Origin: Myxococcales bacterium
GTDB lineage: Bacteria > Myxococcota_A > Polyangia > Polyangiales > DASUME01
Length of the DNA: 64,000 nucleotides
Direction: 5' to 3'
NCBI GenBank assembly: GCA_047601445.1
Contig: JASGJH010000001.1
Coordinates: forward strand, 6,528,001 to 6,592,000
Part shown: piece by piece, positions 5,971 through 62,814 of the stretch
How positions within the stretch are numbered: the stretch's first letter is position 1
Layout: each line of letters starts with the position of its first letter
Made by a program: the position numbers and the translations under genes
The notes under the pieces: model-generated
The model's database searches: none
What the model saw: only the letters and a program-made list of their open reading frames with translations
What the model was told of the DNA's origin: nothing

Positions 5971-8028
<2,058 letters not shown>

Positions 8029-8110
8029 GAGCGAATACCCCCGGAAGTCATGGTCTCGACTTAGGCTACCACAACGCGAGAAGCGAGGGGGCGGCGATCA
8101 CTCTTTCATT

Positions 8111-8135
8111 TCGTACACGTACGCGTGCCCGTGCC
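8111..8135. repeat. Half copy of a dispersed CGTGCC-based intergenic repeat
   Basis: 22/25 identity to the reverse complement of 29005-29029. Confidence 0.6.
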
Positions 8136-8269
8136 GGCGCTCGCGCCGAGCCGTCCATGGGTGCTGTGTAGGGACACGCCGCGCCAGCCTCGCGGGGACG
8201 CGCCGCGCGCGCTGAACCCACACGAAATTCACAGGCCGCCGGGGCGTGCGGGCCTGCTACCCTCGTCGG

Positions 8270-9562
8270 ATGCGCTCCGAGCTCGAGATCGCATTGCGCC
8301 TGGATTTCATGTTGGCCCAAGCGGCCAGCATGGCTCGGCCGCTGCCCTCGCTCACGCCCGAAGACGCGGCGAGCGAACGCGCCCGCTTGATCGCCAGCCT
8401 GGGCCGGGGCGAGCTGCCGGTGCCCGCATTCAAGGCCCAACGACAGCGTCTCGCCTCCGATGCCTATCGCTTGATCGATGACGCACGCAGGCTGTCGTCG
8501 GAGTGCGTGATTGGTGGCCTTTATACCGATCGTCTCGACGAACTCGAGCTTGATTTGGCCATTTTGGAGGCCTGGGGCGACGCCAAGTTGATCCGCCCGC
8601 TGTGCGCTCGTCGTTATGGACGAGGGGACGAGCGCGTGGCGCCCGGGGCGCTACGCGTGCGCTCCATGGTTTGCTCGCGGGCGGACCCGCCCGCTTCGAC
8701 CGCGGGCGGCCCGGATGGGGACACGACGCGAGAGTTCACCCTGATCGAGGTCGCACGCGAGCTCTTGCGCACCTTGCCACGCAGCGAGCTACCCGAGGCC
8801 ACGCTGCCCGCCGTCGCGACCAAAGGTGCGCCTTCGGTGGCCGCCCTCATGCAGCGCGCCTTCCTCGGCATCGGGCTGGATGCCGAGGTTCGCGTGGAGC
8901 CGCGCTTGTCTTCCCTGGCAGCCACCGGGGAACGCACGGTGTTCTTGGCCGATCGCTTGTTCAGCCTGCGGGAGGCGCGTCGGCTCACCGCGCACGAGGT
9001 CTTCGGCCATTTGGTGGTGGCAGCCAATGCGCGCGCGCAGTCGCTGCGGCTCCTGCAGATTGGACTCAAGGGGTCCTTCGCCGATCAGGAGGGGCTCTCG
9101 CTGTACCTCGAGGAACAGCTGGGCTTCATGTGCAGCGAGCGCCTGCGGACGCTGTCTGCGCGCGTCGTGGCCACCGAACTGCTCCACGCGGGCGCGTCGT
9201 TTGGTGAGACTGCGCGACTGATGTCCGTGGAGTACGGCTTCTCGGCGGAGGCCTCGGTCTTGATCGCCGAACGCACCTATCGAGGTGGCGGTGCCGCGCG
9301 GGATGTCGGCTATCTGGCGGGCTATCTGCGTGTGCGCGCGGCCATCGCTGCCGGAACTGCTGAAGTCGATGAGCTGCGTCGTGGGCGCGTGTCGGTCGCT
9401 TCGCTGCCTGCGCTGCGCGAGCTCGAGGGGCGCGGTTGGGTGCGCCCGAGCGTCTATCGGCCGAGCTTCTCTCTCAGCCGCAAGTTGATATTGGGCGGCA
9501 CCAACGCGGACACGTCACCGCCGAGCGACGCAGCCTCCTTGACGATGTTGGAGCTCACGTAG
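8270..9562 (+). CDS. DUF1704 / QEGLA-motif metallopeptidase-like protein
   Basis: HEVFGH zinc-site-like motif, QEGLS and RDVGYLAG; 3' end overlaps coaD in antisense. Confidence 0.8.
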
Positions 9563-57627: not shown

Positions 57628-58392
57628 TCAGCGCGTGTGCGCGATCCTGGACTCGTTGACCAGCACCACGTCGAGGTCGTTGTCCGCAGTGTTGCGGTTG
57701 AGGGCCGGGGGCAGGTCCGAGAACAGGCGTGCGACCCGGCTTTCGCGCCACAGCCGGTCGATGATCGTCGCCATCCCCGCCATCTCGGTTCCCTTGGCCT
57801 TGTCCCGTTGGATCACGATCACGTCCGAGGGGATGCCGTAGGCTTCATGGCCTCGCCGCAGGGGAACCGCCCCGAAGCGGTAGCCGAGTTCCTGCGTGCT
57901 CCGATCATTGCGCGTGATGGCGACCATCACGGCAGCGCTGGTGCTCAAGAACCGGTTGATCGCGATGCCGGCCAACACCTCGGACATGAACGGCCCAACC
58001 TTGTTGCGTCGCCAATCCGGATGAACAGTCATCTGTCCGAGGCTCATGACCTGCTCGTACCCTTGGTCGAGTAGCAGCTTCAAGACCTCGCTCGGAAAAT
58101 GGCGGAAGTACGACAGGTCGCGGTGTGCCTTGAGCCGCAAGTCGCGAAAGTCGAACATCTGCAGTGCAACGACTTGATCTCCCATGAAAATGGCGCTCAC
58201 CTCGCGCTGGGTGAGGAACATGTCGCTTTGCAAGTTGATGTCGGCCTGCACTTCCGAGAACGTGGAGCGCCACATCTCGAGCCAGAACGAATAAGCCTTG
58301 TCGTAATCCTCCTCCGTGCCCCGCCCAGGCCCCCGCGCCTTGAGCAAGACGTGACGCAGCGACTGCACCGTCTGTTTGTCGATCGTCTGCAT
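57628..58392 (-). CDS. Hypothetical GNAT-fold protein (acyl-amide synthase / LuxI-FeeM-like candidate)
   Basis: Strong RBS AGGGAGG; motif-A-like LGQMTVHPDWRR and motif-B-like AITRND..QELGYRFG. Confidence 0.7.
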   Translation of the reverse strand: MQTIDKQTVQSLRHVLLKARGPGRGTEEDYDKAYSFWLEMWRSTFSEVQADINLQSDMFLTQREVSAIFMGDQVVALQMFDFRDLRLKAHRDLSYFRHFPSEVLKLLLDQGYEQVMSLGQMTVHPDWRRNKVGPFMSEVLAGIAINRFLSTSAAVMVAITRNDRSTQELGYRFGAVPLRRGHEAYGIPSDVIVIQRDKAKGTEMAGMATIIDRLWRESRVARLFSDLPPALNRNTADNDLDVVLVNESRIAHTR

Positions 58393-59661
58393 GTGTCTAC
58401 CTCCCTTTGTCGATGTGACGTCGTTGCCGACTATTTCCCCCACGAATAACTTCTGAGACGAACTGAAGATCGCGCATGAATTGCAGTGGAGCTCTGACTC
58501 GCGAGCGCTCTGCGCCGACGAACCCGAGAAGCTGCGACTCGGGCCGCTGCTTCGAAGATGGCTTCAGCGCTGGCGCCCTCACCGCGCGCGCACGAGCCCA
58601 GCCCACGCGATGCGCCTCGAGCCCCGTCGGGCGATTCGCGGAGCGCCGTGCGGCGCGAGCATCGAAAGCTTTGACCCGACGCTGGGGCCATCCGCAGGTC
58701 CTGGCAGGCCGGCCCAGGCGAGAAAAGTTGATCCAAGCGGACGGCGCGTCCTCCAGCTGATCTCGAATGTCGTTCGACGATGCCCAGATGGGCATCCGGC
58801 GCGCCAACAACGGGCCTCATTTGGTTATTCGAGGCGTCCACGAATCGGAGCGGACGGCGAATCTCTGAATCTTCGTGCAGCCAAATGCCGCCAAATCCAG
58901 CTTCGGAGTCAGACGCGCCTGTTTGCATTGACCATATTCTGTCAGTGCAGGCGTTTTTGCTTCCAGCGGTAAAATTCTTTACCTGCTGTAGCCGGTCCTC
59001 GCGAGAGGACAATTTCGTTGTGTTCGGGAGCGTTTGCTGAATTTCAAGGCAGTGACTCAAACGGGCAGCGCGCAATGGCAATTGTGTCCTCAGGCGCAAA
59101 GCCTCCCGGCAGGGACCGCAAACAAACCTGCTCCTCCCGACTCGGAGCGGCTCGCGATTGACGTGCAACATCCATCCTCCACTCGCGAGTTTCCTGACGT
59201 TCGCGATCGCGCGCGGTCGAGCACTCCCGATTGGCGAGCGAGCGCCCGCGGGTCAACGCGCTTTCCGCCCTGAGTCCGCGCTCTGAGAGTTCGTCCCCAG
59301 CAGCGGAGTTATTGCGGCGCCTGATGGGGCGGTGGCGTTGCTCGACCACGCTGGGTCTCCCCAAGTCAGCACTGTGATTCGCAGTGCAACCTGTAGTGCG
59401 GCGCGGGCCCAATCGTTTGCGCGTCCAGCAAACTTGCTTGCGTTCTCGCGTGTGACGACCGGCAAGCACCATGTGAAGCAGCTCGCCCCTACTCGTGAGA
59501 ATGTGCCTTCCAGGGATGGTGTGCAGCCATGCTTTGCGGGCGATCGGGTGAATGCTGTGTCTTGGCTTACGACGACGCCCTACTCATTCAGGTCGCGCGC
59601 GCCCGCACGCTCGTGGACTTTCGCTACCCCGCTCGCGAGGCGCTTGATACAATGTGGGGAG

Positions 59662-60720
59662 ATGGACGCCGTTCGGGAGCAGCAGCACCGCCCTCTCGCA
59701 GCCTACCAAGGTTTCGTCCGGTCGCAGTTGAGCCGGTTTGGGGCGTCACACAGTGATTTGGAAGACCTCATCCAAGAGGTCTGGCTCATCGCGATCGCAC
59801 GTTCTCCGCGGTTCACCGAAGACCGCGCCATTCGCGCATGGCTCAGCGAGGTCTGTCGACGCGTCGTTGCTGGGGCTCGCAGGTCGCGAACGCGCACTCC
59901 GCTCTTGCCCGGCGACGCGCCGGAGTTGTCGGTCGAACCGGAGCAGGTGGAGCACATCGAAGTCGAACTCGACGAGCAGATGTGCATGGCTGCACTCGCC
60001 AGGTTGGATGAGCGCCAGCTCGACGTTCTTACTCTCTACGGCGGCGGTGACCTCTCGATGCGCGAAGTCGCCGAGCTGGTCGGTGAGCCCGAGCGAACCG
60101 TGTACTCACGCTATCGTTCGGCAATCAGCGAGCTCACGCGCGACTTGCGGCGCAACGAGCGCACGAAGCCCCGCTCGAGCCTGCCACCACCGTTTCCTCT
60201 CAGCGATACGCTGAACATCTCGGGAGACAGCGAGATCTGGGCCGATCAAGGGCGCTTGGCGATCTACCGCTCCGATGAACGAATGGTGCTGGGCCGTCTG
60301 GGCAACGTCGTCGTCGCCCGTTGGCGCAAACGAGCGTACGAAGACTCCTCGCTGGCGATCGGCCGTGCGATCGGAGAGGCTCACAAACGCATGGGAGGCC
60401 TGGTGGTGCTATTGAACCACGTCGAGCCCGAGATGCGCCTGCTCAATGCGTCTGAGCGGAGCTACATGCGCGAGCTGATCCGGGTGAGTTCCCCGCAGTT
60501 GGCAGTGGTCGTCGACGTTTGCAACACGCCGATTGTGCGCATCGGTGGTGCAATCATGCAGGCACTCATGCTGATCACTCGGTCCACGACTTCGTTCGTG
60601 GTGGTTCCGACGCTCGAGCAGACGCGTCGGCATGTGACGCCGCATGCGTTCTGCACCGCGGGGCCTTTGAGCTTCGAACAAGTCGCGCACGCCATGCAGA
60701 CGCTTCGCTCGCAGCCTTAG
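59662..60720 (+). CDS. ECF sigma factor with C-terminal STAS/SEC14-like extension
   Basis: Region 2 DLEDLIQEVW..RAWL..VCRR; region 4 L.E.Q..V..L...LSMREVAE.VG.PE.TV.SR; about 160 extra C-terminal residues. Confidence 0.85.
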   Translation: MDAVREQQHRPLAAYQGFVRSQLSRFGASHSDLEDLIQEVWLIAIARSPRFTEDRAIRAWLSEVCRRVVAGARRSRTRTPLLPGDAPELSVEPEQVEHIEVELDEQMCMAALARLDERQLDVLTLYGGGDLSMREVAELVGEPERTVYSRYRSAISELTRDLRRNERTKPRSSLPPPFPLSDTLNISGDSEIWADQGRLAIYRSDERMVLGRLGNVVVARWRKRAYEDSSLAIGRAIGEAHKRMGGLVVLLNHVEPEMRLLNASERSYMRELIRVSSPQLAVVVDVCNTPIVRIGGAIMQALMLITRSTTSFVVVPTLEQTRRHVTPHAFCTAGPLSFEQVAHAMQTLRSQP

Positions 60721-60990
60721 CGATTCCTTGGGCTCGGCAGCGAGCACAAACGCGAGGATCGGCATCGCGCGGCCTGGGAGCCCGACGGCCAGAATGGCGT
60801 CATTGCGCAGGCCGGTTTGTAAGCTGGCCCCGGTTTGTCGCGCCGCCGGGGGTGAATCAAAGAGTTTTCTGCAGCCTCGTCAACGCCGCTTGCAGATTGA
60901 AGAATTCGTCGTCTTCTGGAGCTCACTGTTCCAGCATCGGCACATTTTTCCTGTGGAACGAAAACGAGTCGCTTTGACACGATATGGCCA

Positions 60991-62172
60991 ATGGAAACAA
61001 AAAAAGTCATTCCCGAGACCCTTCAAGGAGGCATTTGGCTGATCGGAAGCCCAGTTGAAGCGAACGGTGAGGTCGCCTCCTGGGCAGAAAATGGCCAAAC
61101 GAGGTCAAGCGTTTGGGTGCGGCACGCGGTGGAGAGCCGCTTCGGCCGAAACGCCCATCTTTCGCCGGGCGCGCTCCGCAACTCCCTCGCAATCGAGGCG
61201 GTATGGCTCGCCGATGGCGCGAGCGAAGAGGAGCTCGCCCCCGCCTTGTATCGCGCGCTGCAGATCGGGCGCATCCGCGATCTGAACACCGTGGTGGCCC
61301 ACCTTTCGGGGGTGGAGTCTGCGGTCGCTCGCGTGCTCCGACTAGCAGAGCTCAGCGCTGCGAGTGAGGTTCGGGAGGGGCGCGAGTTCGTGGCCATGGC
61401 GCAGATGCTGGACGTCGCAATCTTCGAGGCGGCCCGTCGCTGTAGCCCGGCCGCGTGGCAAGAAGTCCGCAAGGGATTGGCCCTGGAGGCGATGGAGATG
61501 GTGCGGCACTGGCTGCCACGATTCTATGGGGGCAGTTTTACCCGTTCGGTCCTCGATAAGACCATGACCCGCGAGCAGTACATCCAGACGCTGTCCAATG
61601 CCCATCACTACGTTCGCCAGACGACGCAGCACTTGGGGCGCGCGGTCGCCAATGCGAACGATCGCGACATGCGCCGCCACCTCATCCATCACCTCAACGG
61701 GGAGATCAACCACGAGGTGATGATCGAGAACGACCTACGGCACCTCGGCGTGGACCCCGAGTACGTAACCCGTCACCGCATGCCCAACTGGAAAACCAAG
61801 GCGTTCATGGCGGTGCAGGAGGCTGCGGTGGGCTTCTACCACGATCCGCTGATGCTCATGGCCTGTGCGTTGGCAGGCGAGGCGGTCGCGGCCCACATGC
61901 CGAGCGAGTTCTTGCCCTGCCTGCGTGAGCTGGTCGTTTCGTGGGGCGTGCAACGACCAGAAAGAGCGGTCTCGTTCATCGCGTCCCACACGCACGTGGA
62001 CGGAGGCGAGGCTGGTCACTGGCAGGCGACGGCCGATATCCTCGGAAACTACCTGGTCGACGAGGCGACACAGCGGCGCTTCCTGTGTACCGTGCGCGCC
62101 ACCGCCGAGTCTTTCGAGCGACTGGCCAACTCCAATATCGACGAGCTGCCGCTCTTCGCGCGGGTCTCTTGA
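60991..62172 (+). CDS. Heme-oxygenase-like diiron oxidase (iron-containing redox enzyme) with an extra N-terminal domain
   Basis: Helical C-terminal domain with HHLNGEINH..IENDL..LG, AGE and SFIASH...D....GH ligand pattern. Confidence 0.75.
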   Translation: METKKVIPETLQGGIWLIGSPVEANGEVASWAENGQTRSSVWVRHAVESRFGRNAHLSPGALRNSLAIEAVWLADGASEEELAPALYRALQIGRIRDLNTVVAHLSGVESAVARVLRLAELSAASEVREGREFVAMAQMLDVAIFEAARRCSPAAWQEVRKGLALEAMEMVRHWLPRFYGGSFTRSVLDKTMTREQYIQTLSNAHHYVRQTTQHLGRAVANANDRDMRRHLIHHLNGEINHEVMIENDLRHLGVDPEYVTRHRMPNWKTKAFMAVQEAAVGFYHDPLMLMACALAGEAVAAHMPSEFLPCLRELVVSWGVQRPERAVSFIASHTHVDGGEAGHWQATADILGNYLVDEATQRRFLCTVRATAESFERLANSNIDELPLFARVS

Positions 62173-62287
62173 AATTGGGGGCACAAGGTCACTCGGCGGC
62201 TCAGCGGATGGCGAGCTTGTGGTTCGCCCCCCGGCACCCACAAGCTCGCCATCGCTCGAGCCCGCATGCTAGCGACCGAAAAACCGA

Positions 62288-62665
62288 TCAGGGCAAGGCG
62301 TGACGAATATGATCCTTGAGTTGGGCCGGACGAAAGGGTTTGGTGAGAAAACTGCTGGCGCCCAAGCCGAGGACTCGCTTGCGGGCGCCGTCTCCCTCGC
62401 TGCTCATGATGATCACGGGCAAACCCGGCCGCTCCCGACGCAGGCGCGCGAGCAACGCGTCGCCGCGCAGACGGGGCATGTTCATGTCGAGCAGGACAAC
62501 ATCAACAGAATAGTCGCGCAGCTTCTCCAGCGCCTCTTGGCCGTCACACGCCTCGGCCACTTCGTAGCCCCAACTGGCCAGCAGCGTGACACAAAGCCCG
62601 CGAAGCATGGGCTCGTCGTCGACTACTAAGATTCGCTGCACTTGTTCCTGACAGACCATCTGCAT
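62288..62665 (-). CDS. Single-domain response regulator (CheY-like)
   Basis: ILVVDDE, LLDMNMP, IIMS and KPF motifs. Confidence 0.9.
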   Translation of the reverse strand: MQMVCQEQVQRILVVDDEPMLRGLCVTLLASWGYEVAEACDGQEALEKLRDYSVDVVLLDMNMPRLRGDALLARLRRERPGLPVIIMSSEGDGARKRVLGLGASSFLTKPFRPAQLKDHIRHALP

Positions 62666-62814
62666 CTGTCTGGTGGAATGCAGTTCCCCACCCCAATTCC
62701 TGAGAAAAAGTTGTCCACCTGGCAGTTTTTTCGCTGCCGGGGCGGAGTGCGTCGTTCAAGGACCTCGAAATTCCTGGGCAGAAGGCTCCAGGCGTGGCCA
62801 AGGTCGGCTAAATT

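Follow-up and report, generated by a model that had tools for sequence, protein, structure and literature searches.

Do three unusual neighbouring genes of a myxobacterium make and sense one small molecule? The genes lie in a window of 64,000 nucleotides (the whole stretch that was analysed), positions 6,528,001 to 6,592,000 of contig JASGJH010000001.1 in the Myxococcales bacterium assembly GCA_047601445.1; the genome is a single contig of 9.5 Mb with a GC content of 66%. They encode a GNAT-like protein (P0001; 57628-58392, minus strand), an ECF sigma factor with a STAS-like tail (P0002; 59662-60720, plus strand, 352 aa) and an HO-like diiron oxidase (HDO; P0003; 60991-62172, plus strand, 393 aa). 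From the letters alone it had been proposed that the GNAT makes an acyl-amide, that the oxidase tailors it and that the sigma factor senses the product; we refer to this as the sequence-only reading. The three open reading frames (ORFs), the lone receiver gene that follows them (62288-62665, minus strand; PF00072, E 1e-30) and the two spacers of 1.27 kb and 270 bp (exactly 1269 and 270 bp) are all where that reading had put them.

The gene trio is conserved in relatives. The locus appears to be a real and conserved way of tailoring N-acyl amino acids, a variant that is undescribed, to which a plausible but hypothetical STAS/ECF sensing arm would belong. The small-molecule signals and receptors of myxobacteria are poorly known, and according to the accessible part of PMC7862692 these bacteria may have an undiscovered way of detecting acyl signals.

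Conservation of the gene set

Of 301 genomes of the order, 10 carry the GNAT family, as do 8 of 301 from one sister family and 7 of 10 from the host's own genus; in a sample of the phylum it is found in the host genome only (1/401). Searches of the order, the sister family, the genus and further homologues yielded 16 other distinct GNAT loci. At 14 of these an HDO gene is adjacent, and also at 14 a STAS-like domain, either free or fused to an ECF sigma factor, lies within 3 kb (it is missing in L036 and on the 1.2-kb contig L007); these counts come from genomes that are kin, and the profiles were themselves built from 10 of the 16 loci for HDO and 9 of the 16 for STAS. As a control, five genomes outside the STAS profile have between one and four STAS matches each, and in four of the five one match stands beside the GNAT gene or the GNAT-HDO pair. 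The co-occurrence among homologues, on which the sequence-only reading had staked itself, is thus borne out.

Three architectures are seen. In the first, an ECF-STAS gene comes with a long HDO gene that is followed by the GNAT gene (L005, L006 and L008; L007 has the HDO-GNAT pair only). In the second, the GNAT gene is followed by a short HDO gene of 200 aa, and a free STAS-like gene is divergent or convergent to them; this is found at nine loci, and in L036 without the STAS gene. In the third, at L039 and L040, ThiF-like, nitroreductase-like and GNAT genes follow one another, the STAS gene is convergent to them and there is no HDO; the Pfam matches to ThiF and nitroreductase have E-values of 4e-5 to 7e-3, all of them under the cut-offs.

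In a GNAT tree of 23 rows the first and the third type are starred clades, and the second and third together form another. The STAS-like partner occurs in three GNAT clades that each have support of their own (two with 100/99 and 100/98, and members of a group with 93/90). Further, one protein, P0079, is a natural fusion of GNAT and HDO.

The GNAT-HDO pair is also present on a plasmid of Bdellovibrio sp. HM001 (AP029175.1; L047:84-2393), with GNAT (E 4.5e-24) before HDO (E 3.9e-36); the Bdellovibrionota context consists of this one plasmid. A plasmid search with P0040 gave no match. The annotated GNAT start of this locus seems to be about 45 codons too late, and the flanks hold a divergent XRE helix-turn-helix gene and a convergent gene for a 191-aa protein that has no Pfam match and is PAS-like by eye.

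Other genes stand close to the set at some of the loci. A tryptophan-halogenase-family gene at L005:8740-10365 overlaps the GNAT stop codon, which suggests further tailoring. In L019 (7860-9083 and 14686-15819) GNAT-HDO is followed by a fatty-acid desaturase gene of the same strand, and 4 kb away there is a gene for a DMATS-type prenyltransferase. A cytochrome P450 gene is convergent to GNAT-HDO in two genomes of the same genus (L022:8319-8840, assigned by eye, and L024:10018-11418, assigned by Pfam). On L007, the 1.2-kb metagenome contig, an in-frame stop at 347-351 splits the HDO homologue.

The two enzymes

P0001 has 254 aa when read from the ATG at 58392 (a GTG at 58443 would extend it by 17 aa) and gives no Pfam or NCBIfam match at E<=1. 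Its AF2 model (pLDDT 91) has the alpha/beta fold of the GNAT superfamily. The top 50 VIA structure matches are all acyltransferase or GNAT-fold entries, with Z between 11.9 and 15.5. The first is the CoA-dependent acyl-homoserine lactone synthase RpaI (6wn0; Z 15.5, root-mean-square deviation 3.2, 197 residues aligned), and it is followed by an uncharacterised acyltransferase, SbzI, FeeM (2g0b, Z 14.4) and arylalkylamine acetyltransferases. The top Foldseek matches are Naa60, FeeM and BjaI, and the Atlas predicted-structure TM score to FeeM is 0.61-0.62. The acyltransferase fold that the sequence-only reading could not do without is therefore present.

The family of P0001 is unnamed. It has 726 representatives at E<=1e-3, and its Atlas clusters are mostly from Bdellovibrionota and Myxococcota. 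None of 149 members matches Autoind_synth, P0001 has no PF21926 (FeeM) match over the gathering score, and a PDB sequence search with the profile of the family returned nothing significant. Position 120 of the family is Y, Q, N or H in 130 of 149 rows, and P0001 itself has S117-L-G-Q120. The residues that are kept are V-x-P-x-W-R128 (the arginine in 147 of 149), R161 (146), N162 (105), Y171 (108) and G174 (146); we take R128, R161, N162, Y171 and G174 to sit at the CoA-binding motif positions of GNAT proteins. P0001 is likely to transfer an acyl group from acyl-CoA. Among 8000 scored candidates there were no GNAT fusions of greater length (497-2000 aa), which is weak evidence.

In P0003 the HO-like domain covers residues ~156-393 (PF14518, E 3.7e-7, over the cut-off). 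The AF2 model has a pLDDT of 90 and contains the helical bundle of the HO fold; the VIA matches of this domain are Sden_3740 (3dde, Z 23.7), CADD (21.6) and UndA (20.2), so the oxidase class named in the sequence-only reading holds as a fold. Six residues, E238, H241, E297, H333, D337 and H343, are invariant in all 19 rows of the HDO homologue alignment (A2). They make up a candidate set of three His and three carboxylate ligands, assigned by spacing and not by residue-level superposition. For this assignment we presume UndA numbering, and the E-x2-H spacing is, as we take it, UndA-like. P0003 shares the HO fold, PF14518 and the three His and three carboxylates with UndA, CADD, BesC and the uncharacterised Sden_3740 (PDB 3DDE), and it differs from HDOs of the UndA/CADD/BesC type by an additional N-terminal domain and by its identity to the characterised enzymes of only 12-16%. 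In sequence searches of the PDB the long-HDO profile finds nothing significant, and the short-HDO profile finds 3DDE only.

The N-terminal domain, residues ~1-141, is a second GNAT-fold domain (VIA matches 2bsw, Z 10.9, and 1mk4, Z 10.4), which the sequence-only reading had overlooked. As a duplicate of P0001 it was rejected, since hhalign detected nothing (P 0.2%). This shortened domain of the long HDOs presumably lacks the R/Q-x-x-G-x-G loop, as none is visible. The host genome has two further PF14518 genes (G000:C1:9348882-9349373 and 9078889-9079407; L026 and L027), and within 1.5 kb of them there is no match to the profiles of the GNAT-HDO-STAS module.

A ligand set of three His and three carboxylates defines HDOs according to the accessible part of a 2026 review (PMC13108848), which lists mainly fatty and amino acids as substrates, counts C-C cleavage to olefins and desaturation among the reactions and gives about a dozen functionally validated members. 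The words "enamide", "signal" and "fusion" do not occur in its main text. As far as texts were accessible, the open-licence PMC and bioRxiv literature yielded no description of a GNAT-HDO-STAS set or of the function of Sden_3740, and no HDO paired with an N-acyltransferase.

To which known systems, then, can the two enzymes be compared? In OxzAB (Pseudoalteromonas) and TyzACB, Tyr or Phe is N-acylated from acyl-CoA by an N-acyltransferase, desaturation and cyclisation follow through nitroreductase and ThiF domains, and the nearest structures of TyzA are FeeM and BjaI, according to the accessible parts of 10.1101/2020.06.11.147165, PMC12596934 and PMC10404671. The likeness consists of the FeeM/BjaI-like N-acyltransferase fold and of the ThiF-like and nitroreductase-like genes at L039 and L040; it is drawn from fold and gene context. 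The desaturation step of these pathways is carried out by an O2-dependent enzyme. In contrast, the window has an HDO and its STAS-like partner is conserved, and the ThiF and nitroreductase genes of an oxazolone pathway are absent from its cluster. L039:5828-9967 and L040:8384-13551 come from two genomes of one Polyangiales genus, L040 having a LuxR helix-turn-helix regulator upstream; their gene set is a candidate for an oxazolone pathway of myxobacteria in which ThiF and nitroreductase are encoded by separate genes.

The fee enamide pathway shares the GNAT fold (Z 14.4), and its chemistry, acylation and then oxidative decarboxylation by FeeG, is plausible here as well. It differs in that P0001 lacks the PF21926 match and that the locus has an HDO for tailoring where the fee pathway has a flavoprotein. 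With LuxI/LuxR systems (RpaI, BjaI, LasI and the myxobacterial AgpI) the locus shares the top fold match and a small synthase beside a candidate sensor. However, it has no autoinducer-synthase Pfam match, an oxidase is added, the cluster in the window contains no LuxR, and the divergent layout is not conserved but varies among relatives. AgpI keeps all 8 LuxI residues, according to the accessible part of PMC7862692. By analogy, the locus would work like OxzAB/TyzACB or Fee, first acylating and then oxidising, and it may work like LuxI/LuxR, while by the family tests it stands outside LuxI, FeeM and Oxz.

The best mechanistic clue is the replacement of the HDO by ThiF and nitroreductase at L039 and L040, which points to N-acyl amino-acid chemistry: as these loci match the gene set of OxzAB/TyzACB, the HDO stands in for a step that is known to tailor N-acyl amino acids. 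The swap of the oxidase, the nearest structures shared by TyzA and P0001 and the substrate range of HDOs make acylation by the GNAT followed by oxidation by the HDO likely, and we consider it fairly probable that the two act in this way on one small molecule. The GNAT would acylate an amino acid with acyl-CoA, and the HDO would then oxidise the acyl product, most likely decarboxylating or desaturating it, which would give an N-acyl enamide or a dehydro-amino acid; the enamide is one candidate among several. With its two genes, such a pair would give access to new chemistry of an HDO that acts on an N-acyl amino acid.

The proposed sensing arm and the rearranged spacer

P0002 contains a sigma2 domain (~59701-59898, plus strand; PF04542, E 2e-9) and a sigma4 domain (~59992-60135, plus strand; PF04545/PF08281), is over the cut-offs for these and for TIGR02937, and has no sigma3, as expected of an ECF factor. 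The STAS/SpoIIAA-like domain (~60232-60717, plus strand) is assigned from predicted-structure matches. The tail (last 160 residues) has no Pfam sequence match, and its Atlas TM scores are 0.57-0.65 to clusters of SpoIIAA-like PF11964, STAS PF01740 and DUF7793, in a comparison where both sides are predicted models and the pLDDT of the whole protein is 0.66. These matches agree with the STAS-like tail of the sequence-only reading. Closer to the tail are unnamed stand-alone myxococcotal proteins (TM 0.80-0.86), and hhalign finds it homologous to the free STAS-like proteins (P 60%, E 8.5e-5, 138 columns).

An ECF core that carries a fused C-terminal domain and has no visible anti-sigma gene next to it is a trait that P0002 shares with ECF41/56/294 (SnoaL), ECF42 (TPR) and ECF238 (Cys-rich, CorE). 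P0002 differs from these in that its extension is STAS/SpoIIAA-like. Neither "STAS" nor "SpoIIAA" appears in the main text of the ECF reclassification of 2021 (PMC7826278). The accessible part of PMC2954212 describes that SpoIIAA-like proteins can open a nonpolar cavity, and carrier or enzyme roles are proposed there for them. By analogy the STAS/SpoIIAA-like domain would bind a hydrophobic ligand; as it is the constant third partner of the set and its fold can form a nonpolar cavity, we prefer a receptor role.

The host genome has four full-length paralogues of P0002, and 5 of the genus's 10 genomes have full-length ECF-STAS genes, with 11 copies between them. Among the 301 genomes of the order, the profile of the ECF tail gives strong matches in this genus only and two weak ones elsewhere. 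An ECF-STAS gene stands next to GNAT/HDO enzymes in 4 of 12 copies, L008 counted. The sigma factor is thus the weak link, and the conserved partner is the STAS domain. Of the proposed sigma factor in place of LuxR, the STAS-like partner remains; the role of the sigma factor itself is weakened, since in the genomes searched the fusion is confined to one genus, 8 of 12 copies are free of enzymes and most loci have a free STAS gene.

The receiver gene adjoins ECF-STAS in the window, L005 and L006. A receiver-like ORF (by eye) is also beside ECF-STAS in L064, a locus without the enzymes, and in L004 a receiver paralogue of 75% identity is 4.4 kb from an ECF-STAS paralogue. A conserved non-coding stretch lies 5' of the receiver genes (window 62666-62740, L006:4956-5027 and L004:13520-13559; 78-80% identity); it is a candidate promoter that differs from the motif before the HDO.

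That motif is found at 60954..60990 (plus strand), directly before the HDO start codon, and is a putative promoter or operator. A second copy, with the pattern TGGAA..AAAA..TGACA-N2-ATATGG, lies at 58930..58966 on the minus strand, inside the long spacer, and points into a drifted ORF and then the GNAT gene; it is a putative shared promoter or operator. The whole 9.5-Mb genome has exactly two copies of the motif core, at window positions 58944 (minus) and 60975 (plus), so it precedes the HDO and the transcription unit that leads to the GNAT and nothing else. In L005 and L006, too, it stands before the HDO.

The drifted ORF (58431..58928, minus strand; 165 codons, ATG at 58928) ends 38 bp before the GNAT ATG. 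It begins like the N-terminus of the HDO (GGIWL), at the same offset from the motif as the intact HDO. Past about 40 codons the similarity to the HDO is weak, the codon score of -0.37 per codon is like that of non-coding DNA, and an hmmsearch was not significant. When four DNA queries were compared with random genome segments in 300 trials, the score was reached in 1, 0, 244 and 145 of them, so the similarity stood out with two of the four queries only. The ORF is probably a decayed 5' remnant of an ancestral HDO that preceded the GNAT; with the remnant and the motif copy before it, the GNAT would share its promoter motif with the intact HDO.

L006 occupies the same chromosomal site. Its order is Cof, receiver, ECF, HDO, GNAT, metallophosphoesterase, all on one strand, and relative to it the ECF-HDO block of the window is inverted against both flanks. 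In all three relatives that have the three genes (L005, L006 and L008) the HDO gene lies next to the GNAT gene and shares its strand. The divergent arrangement of GNAT and ECF is therefore a local event, and the motif copy and the HDO-like remnant in the long spacer indicate how it arose. The sequence-only reading had taken the divergent synthase and regulator for the layout of LuxI/LuxR; as a conserved feature this layout is ruled out by the local inversion. The codon score per codon is 0.03 for the ECF gene and -0.01 for the N-terminal part of the HDO gene, both atypical, versus 0.20 for the GNAT gene.

The spacers are indeed richer in AT, as had been claimed: their GC content is 61.8% (1269 bp) and 58.9% (270 bp), with one 300-bp bin at 54%, versus 66.8% for the whole window. 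In contrast, the picture of an otherwise tightly packed window was overstated, as 18 of 55 gaps exceed 250 bp in a rough gene call by codon score with imprecise start sites. The same kind of scan shows another gap of about 1.4 kb without a called gene at 8028-9454. With so many gaps over 250 bp and this second long one, the 270-bp spacer is ordinary, and only the 1.27-kb spacer stands out. The clustering of the genes was a sound observation, as their co-location recurs in relatives, but the long spacer is not empty, holding the motif copy and the drifted ORF. In the spacers there is no Rfam match at E<=1, repeats are at chance level only, a promoter scan found no sigma-70 promoter or consensus, and the spacer has no second copy in the host genome. 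On these results a structured RNA or a repeat element as the content of the spacers was rejected.

Alternative readings and minor features

In the reading that we prefer, the locus would be a locally rearranged copy of the conserved module. The STAS/SpoIIAA-like domain would bind the lipophilic product of the two enzymes; in this genus, where it is fused to the ECF sigma factor, the latter would switch on the motif before both enzyme genes. The folds, the invariant candidate ligands, the conserved neighbourhood, the GNAT-HDO fusion, the shared motif and the inversion are direct observations, from which we infer the enzyme activities, the product, the ligand binding and the target of the sigma factor. 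As a whole, with sensing of the product by STAS included, we hold this chain tentatively.

Several observations weigh against it. The LuxI/FeeM E-x-S-R strand motif is, as we understand it, absent from the P0001 family, S117-L-G-Q120 being in its place in P0001 itself, and PF21926 is reached at E<=0.01 by only 2 of 149 members (best E 0.0012). When matches that depend on the profiles are set aside, only five STAS matches (L014 and L037-L040) and four HDO matches (L007 and L036-L038) are left, plus L047 outside the 16 loci. The GNAT-HDO pair occurs without a STAS match at L036 and at the Bdellovibrio locus L047. The motif is missing in L008, although ECF is present there. No GNAT/HDO gene is found in the 8-18 kb flanks of 8 of the 12 ECF-STAS copies, one of which is at a contig end. 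The ECF-STAS tree has no starred branch and the enzyme-linked copies form no supported clade, so a single-clade origin of these copies cannot be judged from it. Finally, the receiver that travels with ECF-STAS suggests a second input.

The GNAT and HDO may instead make an N-acyl amino-acid derivative, such as a lipid, an antimicrobial or a stress metabolite, that is not sensed by the locus itself; ECF-STAS and the receiver would then merely control the operon in answer to another cue, and the free STAS proteins would be generic regulators that are retained close by. This is a possible, if doubtful, explanation. It accounts for the many ECF-STAS copies that stand alone (8/12), for the receiver that accompanies ECF-STAS in L064 and for the pairs without STAS at L036 and L047, and the oxazolones have no obvious phenotype in their producers, according to the accessible part of 10.1101/2020.06.11.147165. 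However, STAS remains beside the GNAT in three clades that are about 30% identical, and it does so where the tailoring enzyme has been swapped; a link to the GNAT or its product fits this better than a generic regulator. STAS could also be a CRAL-TRIO-like carrier of the acyl substrate or product, or a target that the GNAT acylates, in which case the locus would be an intracellular protein-modification switch and not the source of a diffusible signal. The persistence of STAS beside the GNAT at the two ThiF/nitroreductase loci that lack HDO agrees with this, as do the carrier and enzyme roles proposed for SpoIIAA-like proteins (PMC2954212, accessible part) and the high Foldseek rank of Naa60, an N-terminal protein acetyltransferase. 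We regard it as unlikely, since the longest and highest-Z alignment of P0001, 197 residues, is to the small-molecule synthase RpaI, and since the substrates of ThiF/nitroreductase partners are small N-acyl amino acids.

It is quite unlikely, in our view, that the GNAT-fold protein is no acyltransferase but a partner of the HDO with a ligand-binding or structural role, the pair acting as an oxygen or iron sensor or as a stand-alone oxidase that feeds STAS/ECF. What we take to be the catalytic Glu and Arg positions of LuxI and FeeM are not conserved in the P0001 family, and the long HDOs do carry a second, shortened GNAT-fold domain, presumably without the R/Q-x-x-G-x-G loop. Against this, V-x-P-x-W-R128, R161, N162, Y171 and G174 are kept, presumably at CoA-binding positions, and the family is also found without HDO, beside ThiF/nitroreductase genes. 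That the genes are a chance cluster or a decaying island with no shared function is highly improbable. The local rearrangement, the remnant in the spacer, the atypical codon usage of the ECF gene and the N-terminal part of the HDO, and the patchy distribution (10/301, 8/301 and 1/401 genomes) could be read in this way; but the three ORFs are intact, and the GNAT-HDO fusion and the neighbourhood conserved at 14 of 16 loci, with the L006 cluster at the same chromosomal site, largely refute it.

Extended beyond the locus, the preferred chain would mean that predatory bacteria signal from cell to cell by acyl-amides in a way that forms a new class, which we put forward as speculative. It would combine a LuxI-fold synthase family (more than 700 clusters), an exchangeable oxidase (HDO or ThiF/nitroreductase) and a STAS/SpoIIAA-like receptor that is free in most Polyangiales and ECF-fused here; the fusion would be a one-component sigma factor, gated by its ligand, through which the synthase genes are autoinduced. 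If STAS-like domains are such receptors, an expanded family of myxococcotal hypothetical proteins would gain a function and a ligand-gated type of ECF would be defined.

Three minor features remain. An inverted repeat at 62198..62262, with 25-nt arms (84% complementary) and a 15-nt loop, lies between the convergent HDO and receiver genes and is a possible terminator between them; the terminator scan did not call it. On a Vibrio plasmid an HDO has another context, with genes for a thermostable hemolysin, an AMP-binding protein, an iron-containing redox enzyme and an SDR in a row (L050:2829-6980). At L001:9300-9730 (G000:C1 ~5456300-5456730) two near-identical short ORFs stand directly after an ECF-STAS paralogue; their N-terminal part ends in what we take to be a double-glycine-like leader, so they may be precursors of bacteriocins or of RiPPs, peptides that are made by ribosomes and modified after translation.

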